Positions 5,109-59,792 of a stretch of 64,000 bases of DNA are shown one piece after another. The stretch lies in NCBI GenBank assembly GCA_963714695.1, contig CAVQPQ010000001.1:7880-71879 (forward strand), given 5' to 3'. The translations under genes were made by a program, and so were the position numbers. Source of the DNA: an uncultured Verrucomicrobiae bacterium. GTDB lineage: Bacteria > Verrucomicrobiota > Verrucomicrobiia > Limisphaerales > UBA11358. Position 1 is the first letter of the stretch. Each line of letters begins with the position of its first letter. The notes beneath the pieces were generated by a model, which saw nothing but the letters and a program-made list of their open reading frames with translations, ran no database searches and had not been told where the DNA came from.

Positions 5109-5306
5109 CTAAGTGCCATCCCTTGGCGGAGCGAACGCGGTCATCGCCTTGCGCTCCAGCCAGCGGTCCATCAGTTTGCCAATCCAACGCGCGACGATGA
5201 AACCAATCACCGCCACGACGAACGCCGAAATGAGCGCGCCGCTGTGACCGATGATGTATTCGATAAGTTTGTCCTGCCAGGCTGCCAGGTTTCCGTTTTT
5301 ATTCAT
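5109..5306 (-). pseudogene. N-terminal fragment of an MscS-type mechanosensitive channel (first TM helix only)
   Basis: 65-aa ORF. AFVVAVIGFIVARWIGKLMDRWLERK resembles the MscS TM1 region and the similarity is lost right after it. It abuts the end of the AbiE module. Confidence 0.4.
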
Positions 5307-5420
5307 GGTCTCCTCAGGTTCAGGGTTGGTTGCCGGCCATTCGTTAAATCAATTCCCAGCACTTCGTCAACATCTGAATGGTTGACGCCAGCCGCCTTTG
5401 TGACAAGCTGCCAACCCAGC

Positions 5421-6329
5421 ATGACGAGGAAAACGCGCAACTGGCTCATTGTGGTCCTGCTCATTCCAACGGTGATTGTAACAGCCGTAGCTGGTCTGCT
5501 GGTCTTTCAGGAACTTCGACCGCTGCCACCAATCCAGCCTTTGCCCCAGCCCAACGGCTACACCGGCCTGGTGCAAGCCGCCGGAATGATTTCACCTGAG
5601 AGTTGGGATTACGCGGCCTTGGACGAAGCGCAACTGCGTGAAATCGTTTCGGCCAATGCCGCAGCCTTGTCGGTCGCCCGCGCCAGTATGAGCAATGAAT
5701 GCCGGGTGCCCATCCAGTTCTCACCGCCCAATTCCGAACCAGCACATCTTTCCGGATTGGCCGGCCTCAAACGGCTGGCGCAGGCATTTACGGTCGAGGG
5801 CAAGTTCGCGGAAGAGCAAAGGCGTTTCGGCGATGCCGCCGGGTCTTATTTGGATGTGATCCGTCTGGGCAACAATTCGGCGCGCGGCGGAGTTTTGATT
5901 GATAGCCTGGTCGGCCTGGCCATTGAAAACATGGGGGTGGCCGGTCTGCAAAAAATTACCGGCCAGCTCGACGCCAAAACCTGTCGTGCCGCCGCCGCAA
6001 CCCTGGAAACGCTTGAAGCCCAAAGACAATCCTGGACGGACATTTTGCAGCAGGAACAGGCCTGGTCGCGCCGGGCTTTTCCCGGCATCAAATATAGATG
6101 GGGTGAACTGGTCATGTCCTCATCATTAAAAAAAGCCGGACAAAAGGCCGGACAAAAATTCAATGGGCAGGAAAAGAAGACACGTCAATTGACAATTGAT
6201 CTGGCCGCCCGCGCCTACGAATTGGAAAATGGCCGCCGCCCGGCGAGCGTGGCCGATTTGGTGCCGAATTATCTCAAAGCCATTCCGCTAGACCCGGTCA
6301 GCAGCACGAACCTGGTTTTGACGCCGTGA
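5421..6329 (+). CDS. Hypothetical membrane-anchored protein
   Basis: Start chosen at MTRKTRNWLIVVLLIPTVIVTAVAGLL (N-terminal TM anchor). The long upstream ORF extension overlaps the opposite-strand fragment. The last codons overlap a family-C repeat arm. Confidence 0.6.
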   Translation: MTRKTRNWLIVVLLIPTVIVTAVAGLLVFQELRPLPPIQPLPQPNGYTGLVQAAGMISPESWDYAALDEAQLREIVSANAAALSVARASMSNECRVPIQFSPPNSEPAHLSGLAGLKRLAQAFTVEGKFAEEQRRFGDAAGSYLDVIRLGNNSARGGVLIDSLVGLAIENMGVAGLQKITGQLDAKTCRAAAATLETLEAQRQSWTDILQQEQAWSRRAFPGIKYRWGELVMSSSLKKAGQKAGQKFNGQEKKTRQLTIDLAARAYELENGRRPASVADLVPNYLKAIPLDPVSSTNLVLTP

Positions 6330-6374
6330 GGAGTCTCTTGTCTTTTAAATGAGTCTCGTCACTTCGTCTCCTAC
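6313..6374. repeat. Family C palindromic element (TGTAGGAG type), left arm overlapping a CDS 3' end
   Basis: The right arm GAGTCTCGTCACTTCGTCTCCTAC is intact. The left arm (..GACGCCGTGAGGAGTCTC) supplies the last codons and the stop of gene 5421-6329. Confidence 0.7.
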
Positions 6375-6760: not shown

Positions 6761-6817
6761 GTGATTCGTGAAGCGTGAAAACGTGATTGTGCATCACGCA
6801 TCACGTTTCACGTTTCA
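6761..6817. repeat. Heptanucleotide array forming a hairpin between the luxC-like stop and the queD start
   Basis: Left arm is GTGATTC GTGAAGC GTGAAAA CGTGATT. The GTGC loop is followed by the right arm ATCACGC ATCACGT TTCACGT TTCA. The array overlaps the luxC-like stop codon at 6808-6810. Confidence 0.75.
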
Positions 6818-8268: not shown

Positions 8269-9539
8269 TGGATTGCGGAGTGCGGAATGTGGAGTGCGGA
8301 ATGAGCCATCAGCGAACATCCGCGCGGTTCGGCCAGGGTCGCGCGGCCAATTAATTCAAATCCGTTGCCGCGACGGATCCCCAAATCTTCCGTTTGAATG
8401 GCCATGACGGAAAACCCGTTCGCCAAATCGAACACGCGAATCAAACCGGTTTCGCCATCAGCCACCTCGCGCCCCGTCTCGGGCGAAACGATCTGGACAC
8501 GAGTCCAAGGGGGAAAATGAAAAAGACGGGTGACACATTCTGGGAGCGCCGGCGTCCCGCCGGCAAGTTCCTTTGTCGCGGTTGGAAGAATTCGCCGGCG
8601 GGGCGCCGGCGCTCCCAGGTCATACGCCTGCGAACTCAACTCGCTCATGCCGTATTCGCAGATGATGTGCGATGGCGGCACACCGAGTTTTTCGGTGATG
8701 AGTCCATGCAATTCAATTTTGGGCAGGGAACGGGATCGGCCTTTGTAACCGCCGGTTTCCATCACGCGTGACCCGGCGGGCAAATCGAAACGCAGATTTT
8801 TCTCCGCCAGAAAATCAAGCAAATGCACGAAGGAAAAGGCCGTGCCCAGAATCAATTGCGGATTGCGGATTGCGGATTGCGGATTGTTGCCCAGCGCCGC
8901 AATCGCACGGTCGAATTCCAGCGTCCACGCGCCGTCCGTTGCCAGTTTGCCGACGAACGCAGTTTCCGGCGCGCCCAGGTTTTGCCGCACGGTTTCAAAC
9001 ATGCGGACGAGTGACGAGTGTGGCGCCTGCGCTGGCGGCGGCGTCAAAATTATCAGTCCGCAATCCGCAATCCGCAATCCGCAATTCTGAAACACGTTTT
9101 CCAGGAACCAAGGCAGCAATGAAGCCTCATACAATTTCAACGACTCGAGCGAATGGAAGTGGCGGCTTGGACGTTGTTCCGTCGTACCGCTGGAATGGAA
9201 AACCGCGATGCGTTCCGCCGGCGTCAGACAGGTCAAATCCAGTTCCTTGAACGCCGATGTCGGCACGGCCGGAATGCGCGCCCAATGTTCGACAACTCCT
9301 GGCGCAAGGCCACGCGATTCGCAGATTTTCCGGTAGGCGGCGTTGGATTTAAATTGCAGCGCAAAAAGTTCGCACGCAAGCCGGTTAAAAACGTTATCGC
9401 AGGAGCCGACGCAAGGAGGCTTGTTTTTTGTTCTGCCAGTGGTAGCTGGAGAAAGACTCCTCACGTCGGCTCCTACATCGGAAAAGAAAATAATGGCCTC
9501 GCGCAAACGCGCGGCAAAGTTTGAAAGTTCGGTGATCAT
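8265..9539 (-). CDS. LuxE-like acyl-protein synthetase (adenylate-forming)
   Basis: Motifs FALQFKSNAAYRKICE, IPAVPTSAFK and VFHSSGTTEQRPSRHF. Start chosen at MITELSNF (9539). The ORF contains four repeat insertions (see findings). Confidence 0.8.
   Translation of the reverse strand: MITELSNFAARLREAIIFFSDVGADVRSLSPATTGRTKNKPPCVGSCDNVFNRLACELFALQFKSNAAYRKICESRGLAPGVVEHWARIPAVPTSAFKELDLTCLTPAERIAVFHSSGTTEQRPSRHFHSLESLKLYEASLLPWFLENVFQNCGLRIADCGLIILTPPPAQAPHSSLVRMFETVRQNLGAPETAFVGKLATDGAWTLEFDRAIAALGNNPQSAIRNPQLILGTAFSFVHLLDFLAEKNLRFDLPAGSRVMETGGYKGRSRSLPKIELHGLITEKLGVPPSHIICEYGMSELSSQAYDLGAPAPRRRILPTATKELAGGTPALPECVTRLFHFPPWTRVQIVSPETGREVADGETGLIRVFDLANGFSVMAIQTEDLGIRRGNGFELIGRATLAEPRGCSLMAHSALHIPHSAIQ
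8270..8304. repeat. Heptanucleotide array at the luxE-like 3' end
   Basis: GGATTGC GGAGTGC GGAATGT GGAGTGC GGAATGA. It encodes the C-terminal ..HSALHIPHSAIQ and starts directly beside the overlapping luxE-like stop and luxC-like start codons. Confidence 0.75.
8540..8618. repeat. Family A palindromic element (WERRRPAGE type), copy inside luxE-like ORF
   Basis: Arms are CTGGGAGCGCCGGCGTCCCGCCGGC and GCCGGCGGGGCGCCGGCGCTCCCAG. The ORF stays open and reads ..APAPRRRILPTATKELAGGTPALPE.. Confidence 0.85.
8853..8887. repeat. Heptanucleotide array (GGATTGC)n inside luxE-like ORF
   Basis: CAATTGC GGATTGC GGATTGC GGATTGC GGATTGT. Confidence 0.9.
9064..9098. repeat. Heptanucleotide array (CAATCCG)n inside luxE-like ORF, inverted partner of 8853-8887
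   Basis: CAGTCCG CAATCCG CAATCCG CAATCCG CAATTCT. It is the reverse complement of the 8853-8887 array, 176 bp away. Confidence 0.9.
9397..9477. repeat. Family C palindromic element inside luxE-like ORF (81 bp)
   Basis: Arms are GCAGGAGCCGACGCAAGGAGGC and GACTCCTCACGTCGGCTCCTACA. The element translates as ..VGADVRSLSPATTGRTKNKPPCVGS.. Confidence 0.8.
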
Positions 9540-9682
9540 GCGGTTTTTGTTTGCCGGCTGGTTTTCCGCCACAGCCGGATGGAATTGTAGCAAGGAATGA
9601 CCTTCCAGCAAGTGCGATTCCGTTTCATTCGAACGCTGCGCAGGATTGCCAATGGCGCCTGTGTCCGTCACACTGCTTTTCA

Positions 9683-11239
9683 ATGAGCAAACAGTTTTAC
9701 ATCACCACCGCCATTTATTACGTCAACGGCCAGCCGCATCTCGGCCATGCCTATGAGAAAATCGTCGCCGACGTCATCGCCCGGTCGCGCCGCAGTCTCG
9801 GACAGGAAACTTTTTTCCTGACCGGGCTGGATGAACACGGCCAGAAGGTTCAGCAAGCCGCCGTCGCCGAAGGGAAAACGCCGCAGGCGTATTGCGACAA
9901 ACTGGCGGCTGACTGGAAGGCGTTCGCCAAAAAACTGGAGTTGACCAACGACGATTTCGTCCGCACCACCGAGCCGCGACACAAGGAAATCGTCCAGGCC
10001 GGCCTCGCGAAGGTGCACCAGGCTGGCCAAATTTACAAAAAAACCTACTCGGGCTTTTACTCGACCAAGGAGGAAACCTTTCTGACCGACAAGGACCGCC
10101 GTCCGGATGGAACGTTCGATCCCAGTTACGGTGAAGTCATCGAACTGCAGGAGGAGAATTATTTCTTCAAGCTGAACGAGCATCAGCAATGGCTGATTGA
10201 TTACCTGGCGGCGAATCCGACGTTCGTCCAGCCCGATCATCGCCGCAATGAGGTGCTTGGTTTTCTCAAGAACAATGAACTGGAAGACCTGTGCATCTCC
10301 CGTCCGGCGGCGCGTTTGAACTGGGGCATTCCCCTGCCCTTCGACAAGGATTTTGTCACCTACGTCTGGTTCGATGCGCTGGTGAATTACATCAGCATCG
10401 CCGCCGCCCACGGCGATCCCACCGTCTGGTCCGTCTTGTCCCCGTCAGCCCGCGCGCATCCCTCGCCGCTTTACCTCTGGCCCGCCGACGTTCACGTGAT
10501 CGGCAAGGACATTGTGAAATTTCACGCCGTCTATTGGCCGATCATGCTCAAGGCGATGGGCCTGCCGCTGCCGAAGCAAATCCTCGTGCACGGCTGGTGG
10601 CAGAAGGACGGCGCGAAAATCAGCAAAAGCACCGGCAACATTGTTGACCCGATTGCGGTCATTGACGAATGGGGCCTGGACGCCTTTCGGTTTTACGTTT
10701 TGCGCGAGCTCGACATCGGCCCGGACGGCAACTGGACTGATGCGGGATTCAAGTCACGTTATCAGGCCGAACTGGCGAACGGCTTGGGCAATCTCGTCAA
10801 CCGCTCGCTCTCGATGCTCAAACGTTACCGTAACGGAGTTGTGCCGGCCAAGAACGACGAACTCGCCGCCGCCGCCGCGAAAACCGCGGACGAAACGCGC
10901 GCCTTGCTCAAACAAAACCAGCTCCAAGCGGCCTTGCAAAGCATCTGGGGACTTGTCACGCGCGCCAATCAATACGTGGACCAGACCGCGCCGTTCAAGC
11001 TGGCCAAGGACCCGGCGCAGGCCAAACGGCTTGACGAAGTGCTCTACAATCTGACGGAAACCTGCCGGGTGCTGGCGGTTTTGCTCTGGCCGTTCCTGCC
11101 CGGCACGGCGGTGAAAATATACGCGCAACTTGGATTGACCGGCGCGCCGGACAAGCTGGACGCCGCGACCTGGGGCGGTCTGGCCGCCGGCCATAAAATC
11201 GGCGAGCCCGCGCCCCTGTTTCCGCGCAAGGAAGCCTGA
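9683..11239 (+). CDS. metG: Methionine--tRNA ligase
   Basis: Start at MSKQFYITTAIYYVNGQPHLGHAYE (HIGH-type motif). KISKS is present (GAKISKSTGN). Confidence 0.95.
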   Translation: MSKQFYITTAIYYVNGQPHLGHAYEKIVADVIARSRRSLGQETFFLTGLDEHGQKVQQAAVAEGKTPQAYCDKLAADWKAFAKKLELTNDDFVRTTEPRHKEIVQAGLAKVHQAGQIYKKTYSGFYSTKEETFLTDKDRRPDGTFDPSYGEVIELQEENYFFKLNEHQQWLIDYLAANPTFVQPDHRRNEVLGFLKNNELEDLCISRPAARLNWGIPLPFDKDFVTYVWFDALVNYISIAAAHGDPTVWSVLSPSARAHPSPLYLWPADVHVIGKDIVKFHAVYWPIMLKAMGLPLPKQILVHGWWQKDGAKISKSTGNIVDPIAVIDEWGLDAFRFYVLRELDIGPDGNWTDAGFKSRYQAELANGLGNLVNRSLSMLKRYRNGVVPAKNDELAAAAAKTADETRALLKQNQLQAALQSIWGLVTRANQYVDQTAPFKLAKDPAQAKRLDEVLYNLTETCRVLAVLLWPFLPGTAVKIYAQLGLTGAPDKLDAATWGGLAAGHKIGEPAPLFPRKEA

Positions 11240-13136: not shown

Positions 13137-14510
13137 TCACTGCAATCTTGTCGGCAACTGGAACACGTTGTCAAAAAGCCGGGACAGGGTCTCGCCGGTG
13201 TGCTGGGCGCGCACGTTCGCTCCAAACTGGAATGTCGCCGCCGGCATGAAGTCGTGCAACACCAGACAATAGGTGTTGTTGGCCATGATCCCCAACAGCT
13301 CGCCGTTCCGGCTCAGGACCAGGTCGCCGCGCGACGGATTGAATTTTCCGAACAGCCCCTTCAACAGGTTGCGATCCAGCTTGACGTATTGCGGCGTGTT
13401 CAAATCCATCTGAAAACCGCACTGGCCGTAGTAGCCCTCCTGCGCGCCCACCAGCACCGCATCCTGGAATTTGTACGGATCGGATGAAATCGGGTAAATC
13501 TTGCAGCCGAGCTGGCCGGCTTCCGCTGGCGTGACCGGCAGGAACACCACCCGCGGGTCTTGACGGTCAAAGGACAATGCGTGGATGGGAACCTGCGCGG
13601 TGTTGTGACTCAAGGTTCCCGTGAGTCCCTCCCAATCCGTTCCGGGGTCCCACAACGTCAACGGCGTGTCCTGCACATGGCATAACGCGTAAGTGTTGAT
13701 CCCGTCGGTAACCAGCACCGTCTCGGTGGTTTTGCTCTTGCCCAAATCAATCCCGAAGATGCCAGTCCGGGAAGCGACAAACGCGGCCCGGACCCGGTTG
13801 GTGACGAACTCGCTGAAAATGGCATTGGGCGCCAAGGCGCGATTCTCCCGGATTTCCCGGCTCAAGGCGCCGGAATTGGTTGCCAGTGTATTGAAGCCTT
13901 CAGCCAGCTTGATGTTTTCGGCGTGCTCGGCCTGCACTTGCTGCTGCATCAGGGCAACTTGATCGGCAGCGGCGCGCTTCTCAACCTCGGCCAGTTGGAG
14001 CTGGCCGGCCAGTTGCTGCTCCCTCGCCAGGGCCTCCTGATTGCTCTTGGCGAGTTGCGCAAGCTGCTCCCGCAGGGCGGCGGACAAGTCGGTTTGCTTT
14101 TGGATTTCCGCCTCTTTGGCCGCGAGCTCTTCCCGCGTCAGCGTGGTTTCGGCGGCACTGCTTTGCAATTTCTGGTTGAGCGCCTGGATGCCGGCCTGGG
14201 CTGAAGCGTACTGCTGCTCAAGATTTGATTGTTTCCGCTGCAACTGCGCCTGTTGCAGCCGGGCGGCCTCCCGGACCCTCGCCAGTTCCGCCTGCAACTG
14301 TTCACGATTCTTTTGCTCCTCGCCAAGCGCCTGTTTCATCACCGCCGCAAGGTCATTCCCTCCGGCATCCGCTGTCTTGGGCAGTGCCTCCTCCTTGACG
14401 GCCGCCGTGGAACCCTCGTTCTCGCCGGCCATCTTGCTGAGGTCCGTCGAAAACGTCAGCAGGCTCAACAACAGGAAGTCGCAGATGACAATGAGAATGC
14501 TGCGGTTCAT
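13137..14510 (-). CDS. Membrane-anchored coiled-coil protein with a C-terminal globular domain (degenerate trypsin-like?)
   Basis: N-terminal TM (ILIVICDFLLLSLLTF), about 200 aa of Q/E/A/L-rich heptad sequence, then about 230 aa of non-repetitive sequence ending ..SRGDLVLSRNGELLGIMAN.. 4-bp overlap with the upstream gene. Confidence 0.65.
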   Translation of the reverse strand: MNRSILIVICDFLLLSLLTFSTDLSKMAGENEGSTAAVKEEALPKTADAGGNDLAAVMKQALGEEQKNREQLQAELARVREAARLQQAQLQRKQSNLEQQYASAQAGIQALNQKLQSSAAETTLTREELAAKEAEIQKQTDLSAALREQLAQLAKSNQEALAREQQLAGQLQLAEVEKRAAADQVALMQQQVQAEHAENIKLAEGFNTLATNSGALSREIRENRALAPNAIFSEFVTNRVRAAFVASRTGIFGIDLGKSKTTETVLVTDGINTYALCHVQDTPLTLWDPGTDWEGLTGTLSHNTAQVPIHALSFDRQDPRVVFLPVTPAEAGQLGCKIYPISSDPYKFQDAVLVGAQEGYYGQCGFQMDLNTPQYVKLDRNLLKGLFGKFNPSRGDLVLSRNGELLGIMANNTYCLVLHDFMPAATFQFGANVRAQHTGETLSRLFDNVFQLPTRLQ

Positions 14511-17924: not shown

Positions 17925-18425
17925 ATGAAAACGAGTGAATCCAAACCTTTGATCGGTATTTTGATGGGCAGCGACTCGGACTGGCCGACGATGAAAGCCG
18001 CTGCCGATACGCTCACCGAATTCGGTATCGCCAGCGAGGCCAAGGTCATCTCGGCGCACCGCGATCCGCATGGCCTGGAGAAATATGCCGGCAGCGCGAT
18101 CAAACGCGGCCTGCGCGTCATCATCGCCGGCGCGGGCGGCGCTGCGCACTTGCCGGGCGTGACGGCGGCATTCACCACCCTGCCCGTCATCGGCGTGCCC
18201 ATCGAAAGCAAATCGCTCAAGGGCCTCGACTCGCTGCTCTCCATCGTGCAAATGCCGCCGGGTGTGCCGGTGGCCACCGTTGGCATCGGCGCGGCCAGAA
18301 ACGCCGGGCTGCTTGCCGTGCAAATCCTGGCCGTGGGCGACGCTCGATTGCAAAAGGCGCTGGCCGGCTTCAAGCAAAAGCTCGCCTCAGAATCGCGCGC
18401 GAAAAACAAAACCCTCGCCGCCTGA
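17925..18425 (+). CDS. purE: N5-carboxyaminoimidazole ribonucleotide mutase
   Basis: Motifs [15 protein letters not shown] and AGGAAHLPG. Confidence 0.95.
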
Positions 18426-18618
18426 CCCTCCCCCAGGTTGATTTCAAGACAACGTGTCTCGGCAGCAGAAATCCCGAAAATCCCGCCCATTCCCTTGCCA
18501 TTGACTGCCTTAACCCAGCGGCAACTTTTTCGGTTGTCTGGTATGAAGGTTGCTATTTTGAGACAGTGACCTAGACAGCCATCCCGGAGGGTGGAGGAAA
18601 ATTTGACATTTTGTAATC

Positions 18619-18777
18619 ATGACTAAATATCTTTTAAACCACACGAGCAAGCTGCTGTTCCCGCATTTGGCACGCGACCAGCGCAAACAACAGTTGAAAG
18701 TCATCATGCTCGTTTTCATCACCAGTCTTTGCTGCGCCGGCTCGTTGGCAATGTGGATGATTTTGGGACGACGCTGA
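18619..18777 (+). CDS. Small hydrophobic ORF (52 aa) inside the purE-proximal insert, speculative
   Basis: Peptide MTKYLLNHTSKLLFPHLARDQRKQQLKVIMLVFITSLCCAGSLAMWMILGRR has a basic N-half and one C-terminal TM helix. It is too short for the ORF track. The local GC is lower than the surroundings. Confidence 0.25.
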   Translation: MTKYLLNHTSKLLFPHLARDQRKQQLKVIMLVFITSLCCAGSLAMWMILGRR

Positions 18778-18863
18778 CGCACACTGACAGTTTAATATCT
18801 GTCCGCCCGGGTTATAGCGCCGGGTATGCCGGACGCAACCATCAGGGTTGGCGCGCAGAGTAG

Positions 18864-18980
18864 GCCAGGCTGCCGGTTATGCAAATCCTGGCGGGGCGAC
18901 GCGAGATTGCAAAAGGCGCTGGCCGGTTTCAAAAAAGCTTGCCGTGAAATCACGCGCGAAGAACAAATCGCTGGCGCGAC
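18864..18980 (+). pseudogene. Decayed duplicate of the purE 3' end
   Basis: About 80% identical by eye to 18303-18422, with indels. It still encodes [13 protein letters not shown], which matches the purE C-terminus. Confidence 0.7.
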
Positions 18981-19112
18981 AACCCTGTTTTATAAGGGAA
19001 AAGGTCCAGTCGCCCGCCCGCCGCTCCGGGTTGTCCATTATAATTTTCTTCGATGTTTTCAGTTGTGGTTCGGACGCCGGGATGATTATTCTCGCCGCAC
19101 AACCTCAATTCC

Positions 19113-40320: not shown

Positions 40321-40342
40321 CTTTCTCACGTCGCCTCCTACA
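40321..40342. repeat. Family C half element
   Basis: CTTTCTCACGTCGCCTCCTACA. Only a single arm is present. Confidence 0.6.
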
Positions 40343-45740: not shown

Positions 45741-48700
45741 ATGAAAAGCCCATTTTCAATCTGGAGAACGGCGCTTCGTTTCCAACGTGCGCAACTCGAC
45801 GCTGCCCCTGTTCGGAGTTCCACCTTCAAGCGGTTCGGACGGGCAACCGCGTTTGGCCGCCTGCCTTTTGTAGGAGACGAGGTAACGAGTCTCAATTTTC
45901 TTCAGAAACCACCGATTGGCGGCGAGAAGCAAGCCTCCTCACGTCGGCTCCTGCGGTTTTTCGCCCTCGCCGTTTTTTGCCTCGCCGTTCCAGCCCTGGC
46001 AACGCCGCTTCAACTGGTCACCACCATTGATCCTTCCGTGGGTCCGCCCGCAAGCGGCGGCGGCAACTCCATGAACCCCATCATCACACCGGACGGACGT
46101 TACGTCCTGTTTGCCAGCACGGCCAACAATCTGGCCTTGACCAGCAGCAACACTCCGTTCCTGGCCCAAGGCTCGCCCAAAATAAATGTGTTCCTGCGCG
46201 ACCGCACCAACGGAACCACGACCCTGGTCAGCGTCAACCTCACCGGCACGGGCGGCGGCAACGGCGATTCCATGCCCATCGGGCTTTCCACCAACGGGCA
46301 GTATGCGCTTTATGAAAGCATCGCCAGCGACCTGGCGCCCGGCGACACCAACAATGCCAACGATGTGTTCGTGCGTGACCTGGTCCACGGGACGAACATT
46401 CTGGTGAGCATCAGCACGAACGGCGGCTGTGCCAACAGCGTGTCCGGGGAATCGGCCATGACGCCCGACGGACGTTACGTGGCATTCGCCAGCACCGCCA
46501 GCAATCTCGTGCCGGGTGACACGAATGGCGTCCGGGACATCTTTGTCCGTGATTTGCAGAATGGTACAACCGTCCGTGCCAGTTCCGACGCGATGGGTGG
46601 AATGGTTGCTGTACCTATAGACGTCCCCGCTTCTTATTGCACGATCCAAGCCATCAGTTCGGATTCACCTGAGATTACGCCGGACGGGCGCTGTGTTGCC
46701 TTTATTACCGCTTTCAACTTTTCTTCTCAAGAAAGAGCATATAATTTGGGAATATCGCAAGGGGTCGTCGTTAGTGATTTGGTAATCGGTACCAAGACTT
46801 TGGTCAACAGTAATTTATTTGTTGCCGCTTACCCCCCTTGGTACGACTCAGCTAATCCCTCCTACAACCATGCCATCAGCGACAACGGCCAATTCATTGC
46901 CTTCGAGACCTTGACGAATGCTTCAGGCGGCAATGGAGTCATTCAACGATACAACCTTCAAACCGGTTTCACGGACATCGTGTGTACCAATGCCATCGCA
47001 CTTCAGACCAGCCCCTTTTTCCGGGACATGGATATCACTCCGGATGGGCGGTTCATTGCCTTTGTCGTCAACTCTAATAACTACACGTATTCATCCGTTT
47101 ACGTCTGGGACGCCCAGACGGCGACGACAACTCTGGTGAGTTGCAATACCAACAACGCAGTGCCGACGAACTCGTTCAGCTACCAGCCAGCCATTGATTC
47201 CAGCGGACAGTTTGTTGTTTTCCTCAGCAACGCCTCCGGTTTGACCACCAATGCCATGGCCGGCGGTTTTCACCTGTATCTCCGCGATCTCCTGGCCGGC
47301 ACCACCACCCTGCTGGATGCCGACACCAACGGCTTCGGCTTCAGCAAGGATTTCATGAACCCCGCCCGCCTGACGCCGGATGGACGTTATGTGGCTTTCG
47401 ATTGCACCGGGGAAATGCCCGCAACGAACGTCTATAACCAGCCTTATGCCATCGCCAATCGCAGCCTTATGCCGGGCGACAACAATCGCGCTTTTGACGT
47501 GTTTCTGCGCGATCTCACCACCAATACGACTGAGTTGGTTTCCGTCCGCCAGCCGGCTTTGCCATCGCAAACCCCCGGCGGTTCCGGTGCCGCGCCGATT
47601 TTCTCCGTGGATACCGGGGGCCGGTTCATCGCCTTTGCCAGCGCCGCCAACAGCCTCGTGCCCAATTACACCAATCTTTATCGCGGCGTGTTCGTGCAGG
47701 ATCTTCTGAACGGAACAAATGTCCTGGTGAGCGCCGACACCAACGGTCTCGCCAACGCCGGCGGCATGTCTTCAGACCCGTCCATCAGCGGCGATGGCCG
47801 TTATGTGGTGTTTGCCAGCAGCGCCTCCAACCTGACTCCGGGTGACAACAAGTCAACTGCCACCGCCGCGCAGGACGTATTTCTCCGCGATCAGCAGACC
47901 GGAATCACCACCCTCATCAGCACCAACGCCACCGGCTCCGGTCCGGGCAATGGCGATTCCTATTCACCGGTGATCAGCGCCAACGGTCGTTTCGTTCTCT
48001 TCCACAGCAAGGCGAACAATCTCGCCGCAAATGGCCCGTCTTGCACATGTACCGAAAACTTGTTTTTGCGGGACCTGCAAGCCGGCACAACTTACACCTT
48101 GACCACAGCCGGCATATCCTTCACCGCGATGACTCCGGATGGTCATTTCGTTGTATTCGGTGGATCACCTTTGTATGTTTGGGATTCGCAGGCTGCCACC
48201 ACGGTTTACAGCGTTAACGCAACCGCAAACAACGCAGCCATCAGCCCCGACGGGAACCGGATCGTGTATTCCACCAGCGCCGGATTCTACGCTGTGGACC
48301 GCGCCGCCAATGCCAACTGGCAGATTGGCGCTTCCGTTTCCGGTTCCCATTCCGGATTGCAATTCAGCGGTGACGCGCGGTTTCTGGTTTATTCCACCAC
48401 CAACGCCCAAGTCGCCTTCGACACCAACAGCATCGCCGATGTTTATCTCTATGACTTTGTCACTCGCAGCAATTTCCTCGTCAGTCAGGGCAATCCGCCC
48501 GGCGCGGCCAGCGGCCCGTCCGATTCACCGGTTATCAGCAACGACGGACGGTTTGTGGCCTATCACAGCACCGCCGCCAACCTCGTCGCCGGCGCCACCA
48601 ACGGTCTGCCGAATGTGTTCCTCTATGACCGGCAAACCGGCGTCACGACACTTCTGAGCGCCAACACTTCTGGTCTGGCCGGCAACAGCCGCTCGCTCAC

Positions 48701-51722: not shown

Positions 51723-53555
51723 TCAGTGTGCGCCCAGTTCAAAAGCCCCAATGTCGCTGCCATCGCCGCCCGGCGCATTGGGAATGGAGGGATAATCGTA
51801 AGGCCGATAATAACCGCGCTGGTCGGTATGAATCCCGAAGCTGTTGCCCTGATCAACCGCCGGACTGCCGGGCAAAAGCGCATGGGTGGGTGTGGGTCCG
51901 CCATTCATTTGCAGCGGACCGATGAACGGATCAATCGGTGAGGCGATGCTGCCCACCTGGTCGGCGTTCACACCGTTGACAAAGCCGATGCTGCCGTCAG
52001 CCATGCCAATCAAGTTGAATCCTTGTGAAGTAAAATCGCCGGCCAAGTCAGGGCCGAAGCCCTCAGAACCAGCATCCCCTATCGTTGCTTGTTGCCCATA
52101 ATAATTACCATTGGTTCCGCCCAATCCTCCAGCGCTGGTTGTGTTTAACGCAATCAAAGTGTTGCGCAAAATAACATTTGTGGTGCTGGTATCATTCAAA
52201 ACACCACCGCCGTCGCCACCTTGTCCGCCCGAAGAAACTGCTGAAGAACTGTTAAAAAAACTGCTAACAGTATTTCCGCCATTGCCGCCAGCTCCAGTCT
52301 GATTCAACGCAATCGTGCATGAAGTCAAATCCAATGAACCAGCGTTACAAATTCCGCCGCCACCACCACCACTGGCGCCACTGGCGCCACCACCTAAATC
52401 GCCAGACCCGCCCGCACCGCCATTACCACAGATATTTCCACTAATGGTGCAGGTGTTAAGGCTTGACTGACCCGCGTTAAAAATGCCCGCACCACCGCCT
52501 CCCGCACCAGCATTCCCGCCTGTGCCAAAACTGCCGCCGTCTCCGCCATTGCCACACGAATTGCCATTAACCGTGGAAAAATTTAGCCGCATTTGTCCGG
52601 CATTATAGATGCCAGAACCGTCGCCACCTGAGCCGCCCCATCCTCCCGGAAAATAAATTGTAACTATACCACTTGGACCGCTTCCACTGCTTCCCTGTCC
52701 GCTTATGTTGTCGCTGACGATGCAATTGTTAAAAACGATTGTTCCGGCATTATAAACCCCTCCGCCGTTCCCACCGCTGCCACCAAAGCCTTCAGAATTG
52801 CCATCCGGCCCGCCACCATTGCCGCTATGATTTTCACAAATAACACAATCTGTTAAGAGACACGTTCCGTCATTTTTAATACCGCCGCCGTTTCCCCCGG
52901 GAGCACCATCTGCGCCAGTGCCTGATAAATTCCCAGCCACGATACAATTGTTCATCGTCAGCGTTCCCGAATTATAAATGCCACCACCATCGCCGCCGCC
53001 CGTGCCGCCAGCATTGCCTTCAGGAAAATTTCCGCCGCCACTGGAATTGTTGGTGATGATGCAATTTTCCAAAGATAAAGCTCCAGCATTGTAAATCGCC
53101 CCGCCCGATTCCCCGTCCTCAAACCAGGCATCTCCGTTTCCCGGAGCCGTTCCGCCGGTGATGATGAGGTTTTTAAGCTTCAAACTGGCTCTCGGAAAAA
53201 CTTGAAACACCCGGTCTCCCAAACCGGTCGCGTCAATGGTCACATCGGCACCGACACCGTTGATGGTCAGGCTGCCATTGGTGATGTCCAAATCGCCCGT
53301 GCGCGCCGCATCCTCGTCCGCGCCGGAAAGGGTCAGCCGATACGTTAGCCGCCGCCGCGACTGGCCAAGCATGATGGTGTTGTTTCCGCCATGACTGTTC
53401 GCGTCCATGATGGCGCCGCGCAGACTGCTGATCTTGGTTGTGTCGTTTGTGTTGGTGATTACGTAAATGCGGCCTTGCGCCTGCAGGCTGAACAACAACA
53501 GTAAGGCAAAAACACCCAAAAAAGGGCGAGCACCATTTTTGAAGCGGTCTTTCAT
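51723..53555 (-). CDS. Secreted right-handed beta-helix protein with choice-of-anchor-Q C-terminal domain
   Basis: Signal peptide. Repeated GGAIYNAGxLxLxNCIxxxN units. The C-terminal FIGPLQMNGGPTPTHALLPGSPAVDQG..DQRG..R..GDGSDIGAFE is typical of choice-of-anchor Q. Confidence 0.8.
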   Translation of the reverse strand: MKDRFKNGARPFLGVFALLLLFSLQAQGRIYVITNTNDTTKISSLRGAIMDANSHGGNNTIMLGQSRRRLTYRLTLSGADEDAARTGDLDITNGSLTINGVGADVTIDATGLGDRVFQVFPRASLKLKNLIITGGTAPGNGDAWFEDGESGGAIYNAGALSLENCIITNNSSGGGNFPEGNAGGTGGGDGGGIYNSGTLTMNNCIVAGNLSGTGADGAPGGNGGGIKNDGTCLLTDCVICENHSGNGGGPDGNSEGFGGSGGNGGGVYNAGTIVFNNCIVSDNISGQGSSGSGPSGIVTIYFPGGWGGSGGDGSGIYNAGQMRLNFSTVNGNSCGNGGDGGSFGTGGNAGAGGGGAGIFNAGQSSLNTCTISGNICGNGGAGGSGDLGGGASGASGGGGGGICNAGSLDLTSCTIALNQTGAGGNGGNTVSSFFNSSSAVSSGGQGGDGGGVLNDTSTTNVILRNTLIALNTTSAGGLGGTNGNYYGQQATIGDAGSEGFGPDLAGDFTSQGFNLIGMADGSIGFVNGVNADQVGSIASPIDPFIGPLQMNGGPTPTHALLPGSPAVDQGNSFGIHTDQRGYYRPYDYPSIPNAPGGDGSDIGAFELGAH

Positions 53556-53719
53556 AAAGAAGTGTTGTTGTATGCTATCAGGATTATCAGCCATGTCAAT
53601 AATTCAGTGTTGATGATTACAGCGGCTGGCACTTGCGTATTGCCAACGTTTGGAGTTCCGCCTTCAGGCGGCTCAGGGCATTCACCACCCATCGCCGCGT
53701 AAAGAGCCGGTGAAATCAT

Positions 53720-53806
53720 TGTAGGAGCCGACGTGAGGAGGCTTGTTTCCCGCCGCAAATCACAGGTTTCCGAAGACGATTGAGACTCGTTACCTCGTCT
53801 CCTACA
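53720..53806. repeat. Family C palindromic element (intergenic, upstream of aminotransferase)
   Basis: Arms are TGTAGGAGCCGACGTGAGGAGGC and GAGACTCGTTACCTCGTCTCCTACA. Confidence 0.85.
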
Positions 53807-53869
53807 GATCGCAGGAATTCCTTTCTTGCACTCCCCTGCCCGGCTCGTAATCTTTCCGCGATTAAAATT

Positions 53870-55045
53870 ATGAATTACAAAATTTCTCAACGCGCCGCGT
53901 CGCTGTCACCGTCACTCACCCTCGCCATTGACGCCAAGGCCAAGGCCATGAAGGCCGCGGGCGAGGACGTCGTGGGCTTCGGCGCCGGCGAGCCGGATTT
54001 CGACACGCCGCAACACATCAAGGACGCCGCCGCCAAGGCGCTCGCCGCCGGGTTCACCAAATACACGCCGTCCAGCGGCATCCCGGAATTGCGCCAGGCC
54101 ATCGCCGACAAGTTCCAGCGCGAGAACGGCCTCACTTACAAGCCCTCGCAAATCATCGTGAGCAGCGGCGGCAAGCATTCCTGCTACAACGTCATTCTGA
54201 CAACGTGCCAGGAAGGCGATGAGGTCATCATCCCCGCGCCGTATTGGTTGAGTTATCCGGAAATGGTGAAACTCGCCAGCGCCAAGCCGGTGATTGTGCA
54301 AACCACCGACCAGAACGAATTCAAAGTCACGCCCGCGCAACTTCGCGCCGCCATCACGCCCAAGACACGTTTGTTCATCCTGAATTCGCCGAGCAACCCG
54401 ACGGGCAGCGTTTATACGCCGGAGGAAACCAAGGCGCTGGGCGACATCTGCGTTGAAAAGGGCGTGCTCATCATGAGCGACGAAATTTACGAGCACCTGC
54501 TTTATGACGGCGCGAAAGTAAAAAGCGTTGCCAGCTTCTCGCCGGCGCATCAGGAACACACCATCATCGTTCACGGCTTCGCCAAGGCGTGGAGCATGAC
54601 CGGCTGGCGGCTGGGTTTCCTGGCCGCGCCGGAACCGATTGCGAAAGCGATTGACGCGATTCAAAGCCACAGCACGAGCAACCCAACGTCGTTCGCCCAA
54701 AAAGGCGGCGTCGCCGCGCTCACCGGTCCGCAGGACCATCTGAAAGCCTGGCTGTCGGAATTCGACAAGCGCCGCCGTTTCGCGCACCAGAAGTTGAACG
54801 CCATTCCGGGCATTTCGTGCGTCAATGCCAAAGGGGCGTTCTATCTCTTCCCGAACATTTCCAAGACCGGCCTCAAGTCCACCGATTTCTGCGCAAGGCT
54901 GCTCGAAGCGGAAAAAGTCGCCGCCGTGCCCGGCATCGCTTTCGGCGCGGATGATTATATCCGCATCAGCTACGCCACCAGCATGGCGAACCTGGAGAAG
55001 GGACTGGAGCGGATTGATAAATTCGCGCGCAGTCTGGCAAAATAA
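53870..55045 (+). CDS. Class I pyridoxal-phosphate aminotransferase (aspartate aminotransferase-like)
   Basis: Motifs GEPDFDTP, NSPSNPTG and FAKAWSMTGWRLG (PLP lysine). Confidence 0.9.
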   Translation: MNYKISQRAASLSPSLTLAIDAKAKAMKAAGEDVVGFGAGEPDFDTPQHIKDAAAKALAAGFTKYTPSSGIPELRQAIADKFQRENGLTYKPSQIIVSSGGKHSCYNVILTTCQEGDEVIIPAPYWLSYPEMVKLASAKPVIVQTTDQNEFKVTPAQLRAAITPKTRLFILNSPSNPTGSVYTPEETKALGDICVEKGVLIMSDEIYEHLLYDGAKVKSVASFSPAHQEHTIIVHGFAKAWSMTGWRLGFLAAPEPIAKAIDAIQSHSTSNPTSFAQKGGVAALTGPQDHLKAWLSEFDKRRRFAHQKLNAIPGISCVNAKGAFYLFPNISKTGLKSTDFCARLLEAEKVAAVPGIAFGADDYIRISYATSMANLEKGLERIDKFARSLAK

Positions 55046-56180: not shown

Positions 56181-56322
56181 CCAACCTGGGAGCGCTGGCG
56201 TCTCGCCGGCGTGTTTCGCTGCGAAGCATTCCCCAAACACTCGCCGCCGGGACGGCGGCGCTCCCAGGCTTGCAACCGTCAAGTTATGGCTCCTTGATTG
56301 TTTGACAAAGACATAATCCCGC
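56181..56322. repeat. Family A element, long 142-bp variant
   Basis: Same length and order as 49061-49202. The 36-bp tail differs at 2 positions. Confidence 0.85.
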
Positions 56323-56859: not shown

Positions 56860-56881
56860 CGCGCACTGTCCTCTTCTCACA

Positions 56882-56921
56882 CCCTCTCCCCGCCAAACGG
56901 GGAGAGGGACGGGGCGAGGGG
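56882..56921. repeat. Family B hairpin element
   Basis: CCCTCTCCCCGCCAAACGGGGAGAGGG followed by ACGGGGCGAGGGG. Lies between the ykgJ-like start and the hrpB stop. Confidence 0.8.
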
Positions 56922-56953
56922 TTCGTTCACTTCACATATAAAAATTCCTGATT

Positions 56954-59638
56954 TCATCGCCACAGATGTTTCGGATATTTCCGCTGCAACTCGGATTTGA
57001 TGCGCGGATAGTGCTCGCGCCAGAAATTGGCCAGGTCCTGCGTTATCTGGATCGGTTTCATGCCCGGCGTCAAAATGTGAACCAGCACCGGCACGCGCCC
57101 CAGCGCAATCTTCGGAGTCTGGGTCACGTCGTAAAGTTCCTGGATGCGCAACGAAATATACGGCGAACCGGTTGCCTCGTAAGCGACCTTCGGCGTGCGC
57201 CCGTTCGGCAGCGTCAACCGCTCCGGCGCGTGCTTGTCCAGCAACGCGCGTTGCGACTCGGACAGCCACGACATCACAACCGGTTTCACTTCGCGTTCCT
57301 TGATGTCCTTGTAGCTCACCGCGCCGTGGCAAAGCTGCCCGATGATGTGCTTGCGGTCGTCTTCGGTAATGGGCGGAAGCTGAAGCTCGGGACAATGCTG
57401 GCAAAGCAGCCTCAGCCGCAACAGCCATTGCTCGACGCTGTGATCCCAGTTCGGCAGCGGCAATCGTCCGGCAATAATCTCACCGGCCAGTATCCGTGCC
57501 GCCGCGTCAGCCGGCGGCGGTTCAACGCGTTTGGCCGACAACGCCAAACCGCGAAATTTCACCAACTCCGCGGCTTGCACCCGTCTGGCCGTTGAATCGA
57601 ACTGGACGTGCAGGTCGGATTCCATGTCTTCGGGGTAAAGTTCGCGCAACCAGTCCGCTTCAATGGCGGTGGCCAGGGAAAGAATGGTGTTCACTTCCCG
57701 GCCCTCGACTTCGCGGACTTCGGTGGCGACGAACAAAGGACTGTGTTGCACGGAGCTTTCGCGCGCCAGTACACCGCGTCGTCCGTGAACGAGTTCGCAA
57801 CGCAGCGTGCCCTGGTCCAGCCGCCGCGCCACGCGGTCGGAAAACCCGATGAGAATGCATTTTTGCAACGCCTCGTCCTTCACCTCGCGCGGTTTCACAT
57901 CGAGTCCCTCGCGTTCGGCGATGCGCACGAATTGTTCTAACAATGGCCCGACCTGACGTGCGGTCACGGCGTGGATGCCGAGCCGGCGGCAAGCATCGAG
58001 ACGGAACTGGTTTTTGGCCGCATAAGTCCACGCGCGCATGAGAATCCAGAAATCCGACGATGCTTTCTCCCCCAGCAAATCCTCGCGAAGTGAGTTTGTA
58101 TCGCGGTCCACATTGCGCAGCAGCAGGTCGCGTCCCTGTGTGAGCGCGGCAACGAGGCAGGCTTGATGAACGCAGCCATACTCGTGGGCGGCGAGCAACA
58201 TGCGCGAGTAGCGCGGATGCAGCGGAAACGCGAGCATCTTGCGGCCGATGGCGGTGATGGTAGTGGCACAGGCGTCTCGCCTGTGAGTTTCCGTCTGTTC
58301 CGCCGCACCTGAAACACACAGGCGAGACGCCTGTGCCACTTTCAGCGCCCCCAAATCCAGCAACAATTCCTCCGCATGGACCAGGCTTTGTTCATCCGGC
58401 GGTTCGAGCCAGCGGAACTTCCGCAAATCTTCGACACCGGCGGCTTTGAGTGTGAGCACCACTTCAGCCAGATCAAGCCGCTTGATTTCCGGCAGTTCCT
58501 GAACCAACCGATGGCCATGTTCCTCCCGCAACCAAAGCCTCATGCAGACGCCCGGCGCGGTGCGGCCCGCCCGGCCCGTGCGCTGGTCCGCCGATGATTG
58601 GCTGATCTTCTCGATGAGCAGCGTATTGAAGCCCCGACACGAGTCGTGTCGGGGAATGCGTGCCAGCCCGCTGTCAATCACCAGCCGGATGCCGTCAATG
58701 GTCAGCGAGGTCTCGGCGACATTGGTGGAAACGACCACTTTGCGCTGGCCGTAACGCGCCACCGCGGCGTCCTGGTCTTTGGGGGAAAGTTCGCCGTGCA
58801 ACGGAAGCAGAATAAAACCTTTTGACTCCGAGGTGTGCCGAATGGCCTCGATGGTTTGCGAAATTTCATACCCGCCCGGCATGAACACCAGCACGTCACC
58901 CTCCCCGCCAGAACCAACGTAGCGGCTGAAGGCCTCGGCGGCCTGCTCCCAAACCGGGCGTTTGTCCACGTAACCCGGCTGCGCGGCGTATTCGATTTCG
59001 ACCGGAAACACGCGGCCTTCGGAGGAAAGGATGGAGCAGGATAATTTATTTGTAGGAGACGACGTGAGGAGTCTCTGATTTATGTCTTTTGAAGTGTGAG
59101 CCTCGTCACCTCGGCACCTACATTTCGACAAATAATCCCCTAGCAACTCCACATCCAACGTGGCGGACATGACGATGAGATTCAGGTCGGGCCGGTGCTG
59201 TTCCTGCAAATCCAAAGACCGCGCCAGCGTGATATCGCCGTAAAGATGCCTTTCGTGAAACTCGTCGAAGATAAGAACGGAAACGCCGCGCAATTGTGGA
59301 TCGTCAATCATTTGCCGGAGTAAAACCCCTTCCGTTACAAACCGGATTTTCGTCCGCGGCGACGTTACGTTCTCGAAACGGATTTGGTAGCCGACTTCGT
59401 TACCAAGCTGGACGCCGAGCTCCTGTGCCACGCGCGACGCGAGCAACCGCGTAGCCAGCCTGCGCGGCTGGAGGATGACAACTTGCCCGTCGCCGAGCAA
59501 TCCGTGCCGGAGCAGCATCTGCGGGACTTGCGTGGATTTGCCGGAACCGGTTGGCGCGGACAAAATCAGTCGCCGGTCGGTTTTCAGCCGGGCAACGATG
59601 TCGCGCTCGATTTCGTAAATGGGCAAATGGTCAGCCAT
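56954..59638 (-). CDS. hrpB: ATP-dependent RNA helicase HrpB (DEAH box)
   Basis: Motifs APTGSGKST, DEFHER, MSATL and QRTGRAGR, plus a C-terminal HrpB_C-like region. Two palindromic repeats lie within the ORF. Confidence 0.9.
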   Translation of the reverse strand: MADHLPIYEIERDIVARLKTDRRLILSAPTGSGKSTQVPQMLLRHGLLGDGQVVILQPRRLATRLLASRVAQELGVQLGNEVGYQIRFENVTSPRTKIRFVTEGVLLRQMIDDPQLRGVSVLIFDEFHERHLYGDITLARSLDLQEQHRPDLNLIVMSATLDVELLGDYLSKCRCRGDEAHTSKDINQRLLTSSPTNKLSCSILSSEGRVFPVEIEYAAQPGYVDKRPVWEQAAEAFSRYVGSGGEGDVLVFMPGGYEISQTIEAIRHTSESKGFILLPLHGELSPKDQDAAVARYGQRKVVVSTNVAETSLTIDGIRLVIDSGLARIPRHDSCRGFNTLLIEKISQSSADQRTGRAGRTAPGVCMRLWLREEHGHRLVQELPEIKRLDLAEVVLTLKAAGVEDLRKFRWLEPPDEQSLVHAEELLLDLGALKVAQASRLCVSGAAEQTETHRRDACATTITAIGRKMLAFPLHPRYSRMLLAAHEYGCVHQACLVAALTQGRDLLLRNVDRDTNSLREDLLGEKASSDFWILMRAWTYAAKNQFRLDACRRLGIHAVTARQVGPLLEQFVRIAEREGLDVKPREVKDEALQKCILIGFSDRVARRLDQGTLRCELVHGRRGVLARESSVQHSPLFVATEVREVEGREVNTILSLATAIEADWLRELYPEDMESDLHVQFDSTARRVQAAELVKFRGLALSAKRVEPPPADAAARILAGEIIAGRLPLPNWDHSVEQWLLRLRLLCQHCPELQLPPITEDDRKHIIGQLCHGAVSYKDIKEREVKPVVMSWLSESQRALLDKHAPERLTLPNGRTPKVAYEATGSPYISLRIQELYDVTQTPKIALGRVPVLVHILTPGMKPIQITQDLANFWREHYPRIKSELQRKYPKHLWR
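58263..58339. repeat. Family D palindromic element inside hrpB ORF
   Basis: Arms are GTGGCACAGGCGTCTCGCCTGTG and CACAGGCGAGACGCCTGTGCCAC (23-bp perfect inverted arms, 31-bp spacer). Confidence 0.85.
59051..59122. repeat. Family C palindromic element inside hrpB ORF (72 bp = 24 codons)
   Basis: Arms are TGTAGGAGACGACGTGAGGAGTCTC and GAGCCTCGTCACCTCGGCACCTACA. The element translates as ..RCRGDEAHTSKDINQRLLTSSPTN.. Confidence 0.85.
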
Positions 59639-59709
59639 GCGCCTCAATCGTAACTGGCGGAGGAAGCTTCTGGCGAAATGATTTTTTCACCGGACGCAGT
59701 TCGACACCG

Positions 59710-59792
59710 CCTGGGAGCGCTGGCGTCCCGCCGGCGTGTTGGAGATGTCTGTCGCAACGCAGCAAGCTGGCGGGACGCCGGCGCTCCCAAGG
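59710..59792. repeat. Family A palindromic element
   Basis: Arms are CCTGGGAGCGCTGGCGTCCCGCCGGCG and GCTGGCGGGACGCCGGCGCTCCCAAGG. Lies upstream of hrpB. Confidence 0.85.

Follow-up and report, generated by a model that had tools for sequence, protein, structure and literature searches.

How can the gene of a conserved helicase hold two different palindromic repeats and still be read through without a break? The question is raised by hrpB in a 64,000-nucleotide stretch of contig CAVQPQ010000001.1 from an uncultured Verrucomicrobiae bacterium, referred to here as the window. The first-pass annotation of this DNA had placed two distinct palindromes within an unbroken hrpB open reading frame (ORF). 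The analysis confirmed the palindromes and the open frame, found all HrpB domains in the product and located both low-complexity peptides quoted in the annotation in the hrpB translation. The two segments are very probably REPIN-type elements, i.e. inverted pairs of repetitive extragenic palindromic (REP) sequences, translated as loops at two permissive positions of the protein. In the order of translation, site 1 contains element 2, a member of repeat family C, and site 2 contains element 1 (Table 1).

The hrpB frame comprises 897 codons counted from a TTG at 59647 and 894 from the ATG at 59638, which is the likely start. Fetched DNA loci and contigs (hrpB loci and contigs with the element 1 REP) are given L-numbers below and database protein relatives P-numbers; P0001, of 894 residues, is 100% identical to the window HrpB. 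Pfam searches of the window protein identified the DEAD, Helicase_C, HA2_C and HrpB_C domains (the last at 131.9 bits). Escherichia coli HrpB (6eud/6heg, E = 1e-106) is its best solved relative by sequence and also the best match in the Protein Data Bank of its AlphaFold model, placing the protein in the HrpB family. The closest database proteins belong to Limisphaerales/Verrucomicrobiota metagenome bins. A tblastn search provided 80 species-level orthologous hrpB loci, and hrpB is a single uninterrupted ORF in all 78 full-length ones. Outside the inserts, the differences between the window and its relatives are biased to third codon positions (40:17:168 by codon position for L082), indicating that the hrpB backbone is under purifying selection. 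The intact loci and this bias rule out that hrpB is a pseudogene, a doubt that the first-pass annotation had raised itself.

Comparisons with orthologs showed that both segments are lineage-specific insertions. At site 1, which joins the end of RecA1 to the start of RecA2, the window has 31 residues compared with 3 in E. coli HrpB (6eud). A short form of site 1, MSATL..L..YL(K/A)PC..L.S.GR.FP, occurs in ~50 of the 80 loci and spans 28 residues compared with 56 in the window, and a short form of site 2, LGAL-DxxGx-IT.IGRKMLAFPLHP, occurs in many of them and spans 31 residues compared with 54. Nearly all proteins of the set P0121-P0240 also have the short forms at both places. In L008, where both sites are empty, site 1 reads TAC TTA AAG CCA TGC and site 2 reads CTC GAC AAG CAC GGC GCC ATC, encoding 'LGAL-DKHGA-IA'. 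Relative to such empty-site orthologs, the inserted blocks exceed the palindromes themselves. The window carries 28 and 23 extra codons at the two sites, and their removal from the 897 codons leaves 846. This matches the relatives without inserts, as a second protein search returned 120 relatives of mostly 844-845 residues, and agrees with the earlier expectation that removal of the elements would restore a normal HrpB length. An assembly artefact is ruled out by the recurrence of the same alleles in independent assemblies.

The arm of element 1, GTGGCACAGGCGTCTCGCCTGTG, is present at 58263-58285 on the plus strand and at 58317-58339 on the minus strand with 0 mismatches, exactly as annotated, whereas 0 such pairs are expected in shuffles of the window. 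Each REP has the form GTGG-CACAGGCG-TCT-CGCCTGTG, in which a GTGG tag is followed by an 8-bp stem, TCT and the returning stem. Weaker pairing around the element reaches 58249-58353 (43-nt arms, 86% complementary). The predicted fold of the 77-nt element as mRNA has an energy of -59.2 kcal/mol (z = -10). Element 2 begins and finishes on codon boundaries, in accord with its annotation as exactly 24 codons, and its 25-nt arms (59051-59075 and 59098-59122) are 80% complementary and separated by a 22-nt spacer. Its fold is that of a moderate hairpin (-24.5 kcal/mol, z = -3.2), so that the earlier claim of strong hairpins inside the hrpB mRNA holds for element 1 and not for element 2. The family C unit, (T)GTAG-GAGCC-N10-GGCTC, has a weaker 5-bp stem. 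The window contains 6 copies of it, including element 2 and one half copy; 3-4 of the copies are non-coding, among them the one between ORFs that the annotation had singled out as obviously non-coding DNA.

Both elements thus combine a REP tag (GTGG in element 1, (T)GTAG in family C) and an imperfect palindrome with an inverted arrangement of two REPs. The junctions, AAA|GTGG...CCAC|TACC and TCGAAA|TGTAGG...CCTACA|AATAAA, contain no direct repeat, and no target-site duplication is visible at either of them in hrpB, which is consistent with, though not diagnostic of, single-strand transposition of the HUH/Y1 type. Derivation from an insertion sequence (IS) as a MITE (miniature inverted-repeat transposable element) was rejected, as neither junction has a duplication and the ends are REP hairpins. 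Of the label 'MITE/REP-like' given in the first pass, the REP half is therefore retained and the MITE half dropped. Ortholog inserts at the same two places share this build and mostly have 20-27-nt arms starting with GTAG (e.g. GTAGGACAGGCGTCGCGCCTGTC, GTAGGGCGGGCTGTCCCCAGCCCGCC, CGTAGCAGCGGACGTGAGTCCGCTC and GGAGCGCCGAACTCCGATTCGGCG).

A link to a transposase was found outside the window. The 23-mer of the element 1 REP occurs exactly in at least 120 metagenome contigs from many habitats. In 80 of these that were fetched it occurs 99 times, mostly outside long ORFs and never in hrpB. In the contig L119, an ORF at 928-1515 scores 97.4 bits against the NCBIfam model NF047646 for the REP-associated tyrosine transposase (RAYT), which has a cut-off of 80 bits. 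Element 1 REPs are positioned at 785-807 and 896-918 with a one-mismatch copy upstream, and the REP lies on both sides of the RAYT gene. In at least one organism, the element 1 REP thus flanks a RAYT gene and is its cognate repeat. The occurrences suggest either wide conservation or horizontal spread of the REP-RAYT pair, and we infer RAYT-driven mobility for the genome of the window as well. L119 is an AT-rich contig, and at 785-1515 its bona fide RAYT gene is flanked by the exact G+C-rich REP. In another contig, L115, four tandem element 1 REPs at 427-593, three of them at 36-nt spacing and the fourth 72 nt further, lie upstream of a beta-lactamase-family ORF, and one frame of this array reads as a WHRRLACGVVAQ repeat. 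L008 has two Y1_Tnp (IS200-like) ORFs ~4 kb apart (13820-14359 and 18157-19092) downstream of its hrpB, with the first ~170 residues identical; they score 45 bits compared with the RAYT cut-off of 80.

The positions of the inserts in the protein were examined in an AlphaFold model computed with relatives at least 80% identical plus a 70-81% set (mean predicted local distance difference test, pLDDT, 70.3; predicted template modelling score 0.57). A run with only the relatives at least 80% identical had a mean pLDDT of 47.7 and was discarded. In the numbering of the 894-residue protein, site 1 is a loop (176-196) between a helix (163-171) and a strand (200-205), and site 2 is a loop (437-455) between two strands (432-434 and 459-461). 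Both loops have a pLDDT below 50, and the elements flanking them are well-predicted secondary structure. By analogy with DEAH/RHA helicases, we take site 1 to be the RecA1-RecA2 linker, from the last RecA1 helix to the first RecA2 strand, and site 2 to be the turn of the 'wing' beta-hairpin of the winged-helix domain. The location of both inserts in low-confidence loops of the model supports the surface-loop placement put forward in the first pass.

Inserts are present at site 1 in 19 and at site 2 in 46 of the 80 loci. At both sites, they are in frame and free of stop codons in all 78 full-length loci and in ~230 database proteins. Read directly from the sequence, the element 1 REP has zero stop codons across all six frames, and REPs of the GTAG type close just one reading frame. 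Since G+C-rich REPs contain few stops, in-frame survival is not demanding. At least 75 kinds of insert, all of them in frame, are not the outcome of chance. The reading frames suggest that the window inserts would be translated as flexible loops of about 30 and 28 residues. The maintained frame and the low-confidence loops agree with the proposal that such elements persist only when length and frame give a tolerated loop. That the inserts instead escape translation, because hrpB is a pseudogene, the hairpins are cut from the mRNA or ribosomes bypass them, is very improbable. The very stable hairpin of element 1 is the sole point in its favour, set against the conserved frame in loci and proteins alike and the strong purifying selection on the backbone. 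Moreover, no known RNA family matches the region, and neither element reaches the gathering score of any Rfam family. Generic miRNA-precursor matches in Rfam were below threshold, occurred on both strands and were dismissed.

Alignment of ~200 orthologs to an empty reference showed that insertions of at least 6 residues are nearly all located at the two places (140 and 162 sequences), with few scattered elsewhere. The insert peptides of ~310 orthologs clustered into at least 23 kinds for site 1 (median length 31 residues) and at least 52 for site 2 (median length 29 residues), and identical insert families were found at both sites in the same reading frame. Relatives 87.5-89.5% identical in hrpB DNA hold unrelated elements with sharp boundaries, five different ones at site 1 and four at site 2. 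In protein pairs at least 95% identical in the backbone, the insert family differs in 81% (site 1) and 75% (site 2) of cases; the kind of insert is nearly unrelated to the similarity of the backbone. Unrelated inserts with sharp boundaries in genes 88-89% identical cannot be produced by divergence in place. The view that the segments are not mobile and are ordinary hypervariable low-complexity linkers is therefore scarcely credible. It would fit the low-confidence loops of the model and the non-palindromic low-complexity inserts of some orthologs, e.g. 'KPVSQLSTINSQ' and 'SKSEIGNRKSEIQK'. However, the insert DNA is palindromic and tagged with GTAG or GTGG, the same sequences recur as non-coding repeats in the window and in relatives, and the element 1 REP flanks a RAYT gene.

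The occupancy of the sites follows a clade pattern. In the close clade (P0001-P0120, 79-100% identical), site 1 is filled in 118/119 and site 2 in 116/120 proteins, and in the sister set (P0121-P0240) the respective counts are 1/114 and 22/114. Some inserts are compound. Site 1 of L002 contains an inner palindrome within the spacer of an outer one, the arms of which are of different subtypes, the site 1 insert of L019 is a composite, and the site 2 insert of L002 is duplicated in tandem together with 12 nt of flank. The hrpB inserts are more than two isolated events; insertion has recurred at both positions, which are hotspots in the clade. For site 1, the occupancy and the nested and hybrid inserts are more compatible with one early insertion whose occupant was replaced again and again than with several hits on an empty site. 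A third, minor site was also seen at about position 585 of the L008 reference, where 15 sequences have an insert of 21-26 residues (YLDSSSSRRESALTSGGKNEPAYAGC); it is absent from the window, and its carriers include P0010, P0048, P0061-P0066, P0071-P0073, P0112, P0114 and L020.

Several observations weigh against two mobile REPINs in hrpB. No second copy of element 1 was found within the window, its 23-mer does not occur in ~100 kb of DNA from the closest relatives, and a motif scan of the window detected no RAYT gene. The flanks of empty-site loci are often, though not always, poor in palindromes, which makes the statement that occupied sites attract elements inseparable from the statement that REPIN-poor genomes stay empty. 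Element 1 is also conserved far better than its host gene, unlike a purely neutral passenger. Compared with L207, it shows 1 change in an 84-nt block, and ~40 nt on either side are likewise almost unchanged, at a backbone divergence of 22% (39% at third positions). Compared with L208, at 23% gene divergence, 46/46 arm positions are identical, the spacer is ~30% diverged and one codon is added at the left junction. L209 has two changes in the left arm. The high-identity block covers only ~150-160 nt, i.e. the element and ~40 nt per side, which excludes long-tract transfer of the allele and leaves short-tract conversion. The spacer of element 1 was sought outside hrpB and none was found; its confinement to hrpB copies indicates that most hrpB copies of element 1 trace to one insertion event. 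Two explanations remain for the excess conservation, namely selection on the hairpin or REP sequence and short-tract recombination that spreads the allele.

Element 2 evolves differently. L081, L084, L085 and L207 carry homologues of it at this position that have diverged roughly as fast as the backbone, and the family C insert in hrpB has little third-position bias (21:6:23 by codon position in four comparisons), which fits a weakly constrained loop. Element 2 behaves as a decaying passenger. It is unlikely that the inserts are retained because they are useful, whether by a hairpin that slows ribosomes at a domain boundary for co-translational folding, by control of mRNA decay or processing, or by loops that tune the helicase. 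The nucleotide conservation of element 1 beyond that of the backbone extends to synonymous positions (all arm positions in L208; 76/77 in L207) and favours such a use, although short-tract recombination explains its clean flanks equally well. The very stable hairpin of element 1 points the same way, whereas the occupants in general are interchangeable, come from dozens of unrelated families of 8 to >60 residues and vary in stability. Both sites are almost never empty in the close clade and site 1 lies exactly at the RecA1/RecA2 boundary, yet most HrpB proteins of Verrucomicrobiota have no inserts, element 2 has decayed arms and evolves nearly neutrally, and the same pattern is seen in an unrelated luxE-like enzyme.

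In the preferred reading as REPIN-type elements, the hrpB segments would be mobile palindromes that are non-autonomous and belong to the class moved by REP-associated tyrosine (HUH/Y1) transposases. Each would occupy a position that tolerates extra residues, the RecA1-RecA2 linker or the winged-helix beta-hairpin turn, and would be transcribed and translated together with hrpB to form a flexible loop. Only frame-keeping and stop-free insertions would survive. The two codon positions may be long-standing landing pads in a Limisphaerales-type Verrucomicrobiota clade. Site 1 was probably filled once in the ancestor of the clade and has been filled ever since, and the residents at both sites would have been exchanged repeatedly for other REPIN families, which would leave the identity of the insert almost independent of backbone relatedness. 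The exchange might have proceeded by insertion into or beside a resident palindrome and later loss of the older one, or by short-tract recombination between alleles. Candidate causes of the recurrence at the same sites are a selection filter alone, targeting to resident hairpins and allele shuffling. We consider it possible, at somewhat less than even chance, that the intragenic REPINs of these Verrucomicrobiota did not simply survive from random, scattered insertion but are confined to a small number of fixed landing pads in each protein, at which the palindrome already present directs the next arrival and a site once filled is never emptied. The exchange could then be transposase-mediated or a recombinational cassette exchange at GTAG-tagged hairpins. 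If so, translated loops would turn over rapidly and site-specifically, the luxE-like gene and the two sites of hrpB could serve as natural reporters of REPIN target choice and turnover rate, and REPINs would steadily supply conserved enzymes with loop variation.

Table 1. Positions in the window of hrpB, its inserts and related repeats.
Feature	Position	Strand	Description
hrpB	56954..59647	minus	DExH-box ATP-dependent RNA helicase HrpB; single unbroken ORF (ORF list)
Site 1 inserted block	59039..59128	minus	30 codons (SKCRCRGDEAHTSKDINQRLLTSSPTNKLS) in place of 2 ancestral codons (K/A-P)
Element 2	59051..59122	minus	Family C; decayed REPIN-type palindrome TGTAGG...CCTACA; 72 nt, 24 codons
Site 2 inserted block	58259..58342	minus	28 codons (KVAQASRLCVSGAAEQTETHRRDACATT) in place of the ancestral 5-codon turn (DxxGx)
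Element 1	58263..58339	minus	REPIN-type palindrome; 77 nt; two inverted 23-nt REPs, 31-nt spacer
Family C copy	53720..53806		Intergenic, between ORFs 51723-53594 (-) and about 53780-55045 (+); reference non-coding copy
Family C copy	45869..45952		Within the longest ORF of a 1103-residue PD40-repeat protein, upstream of a signal-peptide-like segment
Family C half copy	40325..40342		Window repeat search
Family C copy	9399..9477		N-terminal/5' region of the longest ORF of the luxE-like gene
Family C copy, short	6320..6374		3' end of ORF 5244-6329
Family A REPIN	8540-8618		Arms CTGGGAGCGCCGGCGTCCCGCCGGC; in minus-strand ORF 8265-9683, in frame, LuxE domain, read LGAPAPRRRILPTATKELAGGTPALPE
REPIN GGAGCGCCGGGCACCG...	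7979-8057		In minus-strand ORF 6808-8319, in frame, luxC-like acyl-CoA reductase, read ...KVAGTVPGAPGP...

The same behaviour was observed in other genes. ORF 8265-9683 encodes a luxE-like acyl-protein synthetase, and a comparison of 120 LuxE orthologs showed at least 8 kinds of insert, 8-63 residues long, at the position of the family A REPIN, flanked by ELSSQAYD and FHFPPW; the protein has two or three further hotspots. The REPIN in the luxC-like gene lies in the N-terminal part, before the stretch that matches the Pfam LuxC model. The element 1 REP is found in frame in RibD (splitting RibD_C), in a chorismate-binding enzyme and in the pantoate-beta-alanine ligase PanC (L105, L113 and L152), where the REPs use different frames and are read as VAQASRLC, TGETPVP and GTGVPPV. 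The family C copies in the longest ORFs of the PD40-repeat and luxE-like genes probably lie in 5' untranslated regions, with the true starts downstream. Other palindromes surround hrpB. Just 3' of its stop, the hairpin CCCTCTCCCCG-CCAAA-CGGGGAGAGGG, with GGGGCGAGGGG after it, occupies 56880-56925; it is a 'HPLPAKRGEGRGEG' repeat, a kind that also occurs inside hrpB site 1 of other lineages (P0021 and P0054). Family A REPINs bracket the hrpB region at 59710-59791, 63 nt upstream of the TTG, and at 56181-56272, beyond the small gene that lies downstream of hrpB. With 11 arm matches, family A is the most abundant one in the window, and it is not the one inside the window hrpB.

The usual view of REPs and REPINs is one of extragenic passengers that evolve slowly and are inherited vertically, whereas hrpB shows them within a conserved helicase, where two codon positions absorb nearly all insertions and the occupants are swapped faster than the backbone changes. 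The locus is a countable system for the target choice of REPINs, the speed of their turnover and their possible recruitment by resident hairpins. It also shows the tolerance of a DExH helicase to unstructured sequence at the RecA1-RecA2 linker and the winged-helix beta-hairpin. In practice, inserts of this kind inflate the lengths of proteins and give rise to spurious low-complexity 'domains' when metagenomes are annotated.

REPIN-RAYT systems, reportedly also treated by Nunvar et al. in 2010, resemble the hrpB elements in build. As described by Bertels and Rainey (2011, PMC3116915), they comprise inverted REP doublets that form a long hairpin, as in both hrpB elements, multi-copy families, as for family C in the window, and a Y1/HUH transposase gene present in one copy between its own REPs, an arrangement that the element 1 REP shares in L119. 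In this literature, REPINs lie outside genes, are inherited vertically and persist for long at their loci. The hrpB elements are intragenic and predicted to be translated, and the occupants of their sites differ between relatives at least 95% identical in the backbone. Enterobacterial repetitive intergenic consensus (ERIC), Correia/NEMIS and Coxiella QMITE1 elements are small non-autonomous repeats that can form in-frame fusions with host ORFs, as in hrpB (PMC10969869). However, MITEs have IS-derived terminal inverted repeats and target-site duplications (PMC10969869), whereas the hrpB ends are GTAG/GTGG hairpins without a duplication.

Rickettsia palindromic elements (RPEs) were found in frame in many unrelated and apparently functional genes (Ogata et al. 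2000, Science 290:347; summaries in PMC10969869 and PMC3733652), and, according to the summary in PMC10969869, the added peptide segment was judged compatible with the protein fold, as would hold for the hrpB inserts. RPEs are ~100-150 bp long and form Rickettsia-specific families, whereas the hrpB elements are 72-77 nt long, come from a different phylum and are unrelated in sequence; RPE-4 and RPE-6 are of the CGTC type and the hrpB elements of the GTAG type (PMC3733652). Multi-family turnover at one site is not described for RPEs in the literature examined. The hrpB elements do not belong to the RPEs, and the resemblance is one of behaviour only. We know of no link between RPEs and a RAYT.

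The closest precedent comes from the same phylum. Opitutus terrae has the largest number of intragenic GTAG-tagged REPs (Di Nocera, De Gregorio and Rocco 2013, BMC Genomics 14:522, PMC3733652). Like the hrpB inserts, these REPs have a GTAG/GTGG tag and a short hairpin, often form inverted dimers and lie inside ORFs; one family has GTGG in place of the GTAG tag. The intragenic dimers encode 20-30 residues, and their hosts include HrpA and a DEAD/DEAH-box helicase (PMC3733652). The O. terrae GTAG-19 peptides GTGVSPV, WHGRLAR and HGRDARAT match other frames of an element 1-like REP, and judged from these peptides only, the GTAG-19 REP appears to be one compensated stem pair off element 1. In the recB genes of two Xanthomonas species, different REPs lie at about the same site (PMC3733652). 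However, HrpB is not among the hosts in that survey, and the hrpB insert families differ in sequence from those of O. terrae. The survey covered single genomes and does not contain dozens of families at one codon position across close relatives; near-complete occupancy and the lack of correlation between insert and backbone are seen in hrpB and not reported there. In the literature examined, no account was found of fixed codon positions at which close relatives show turnover of multiple families, a search that cannot prove absence. In-frame REPs in Verrucomicrobia are thus already known from O. terrae, and compared with these, the multi-family hotspots of hrpB are the less expected part.

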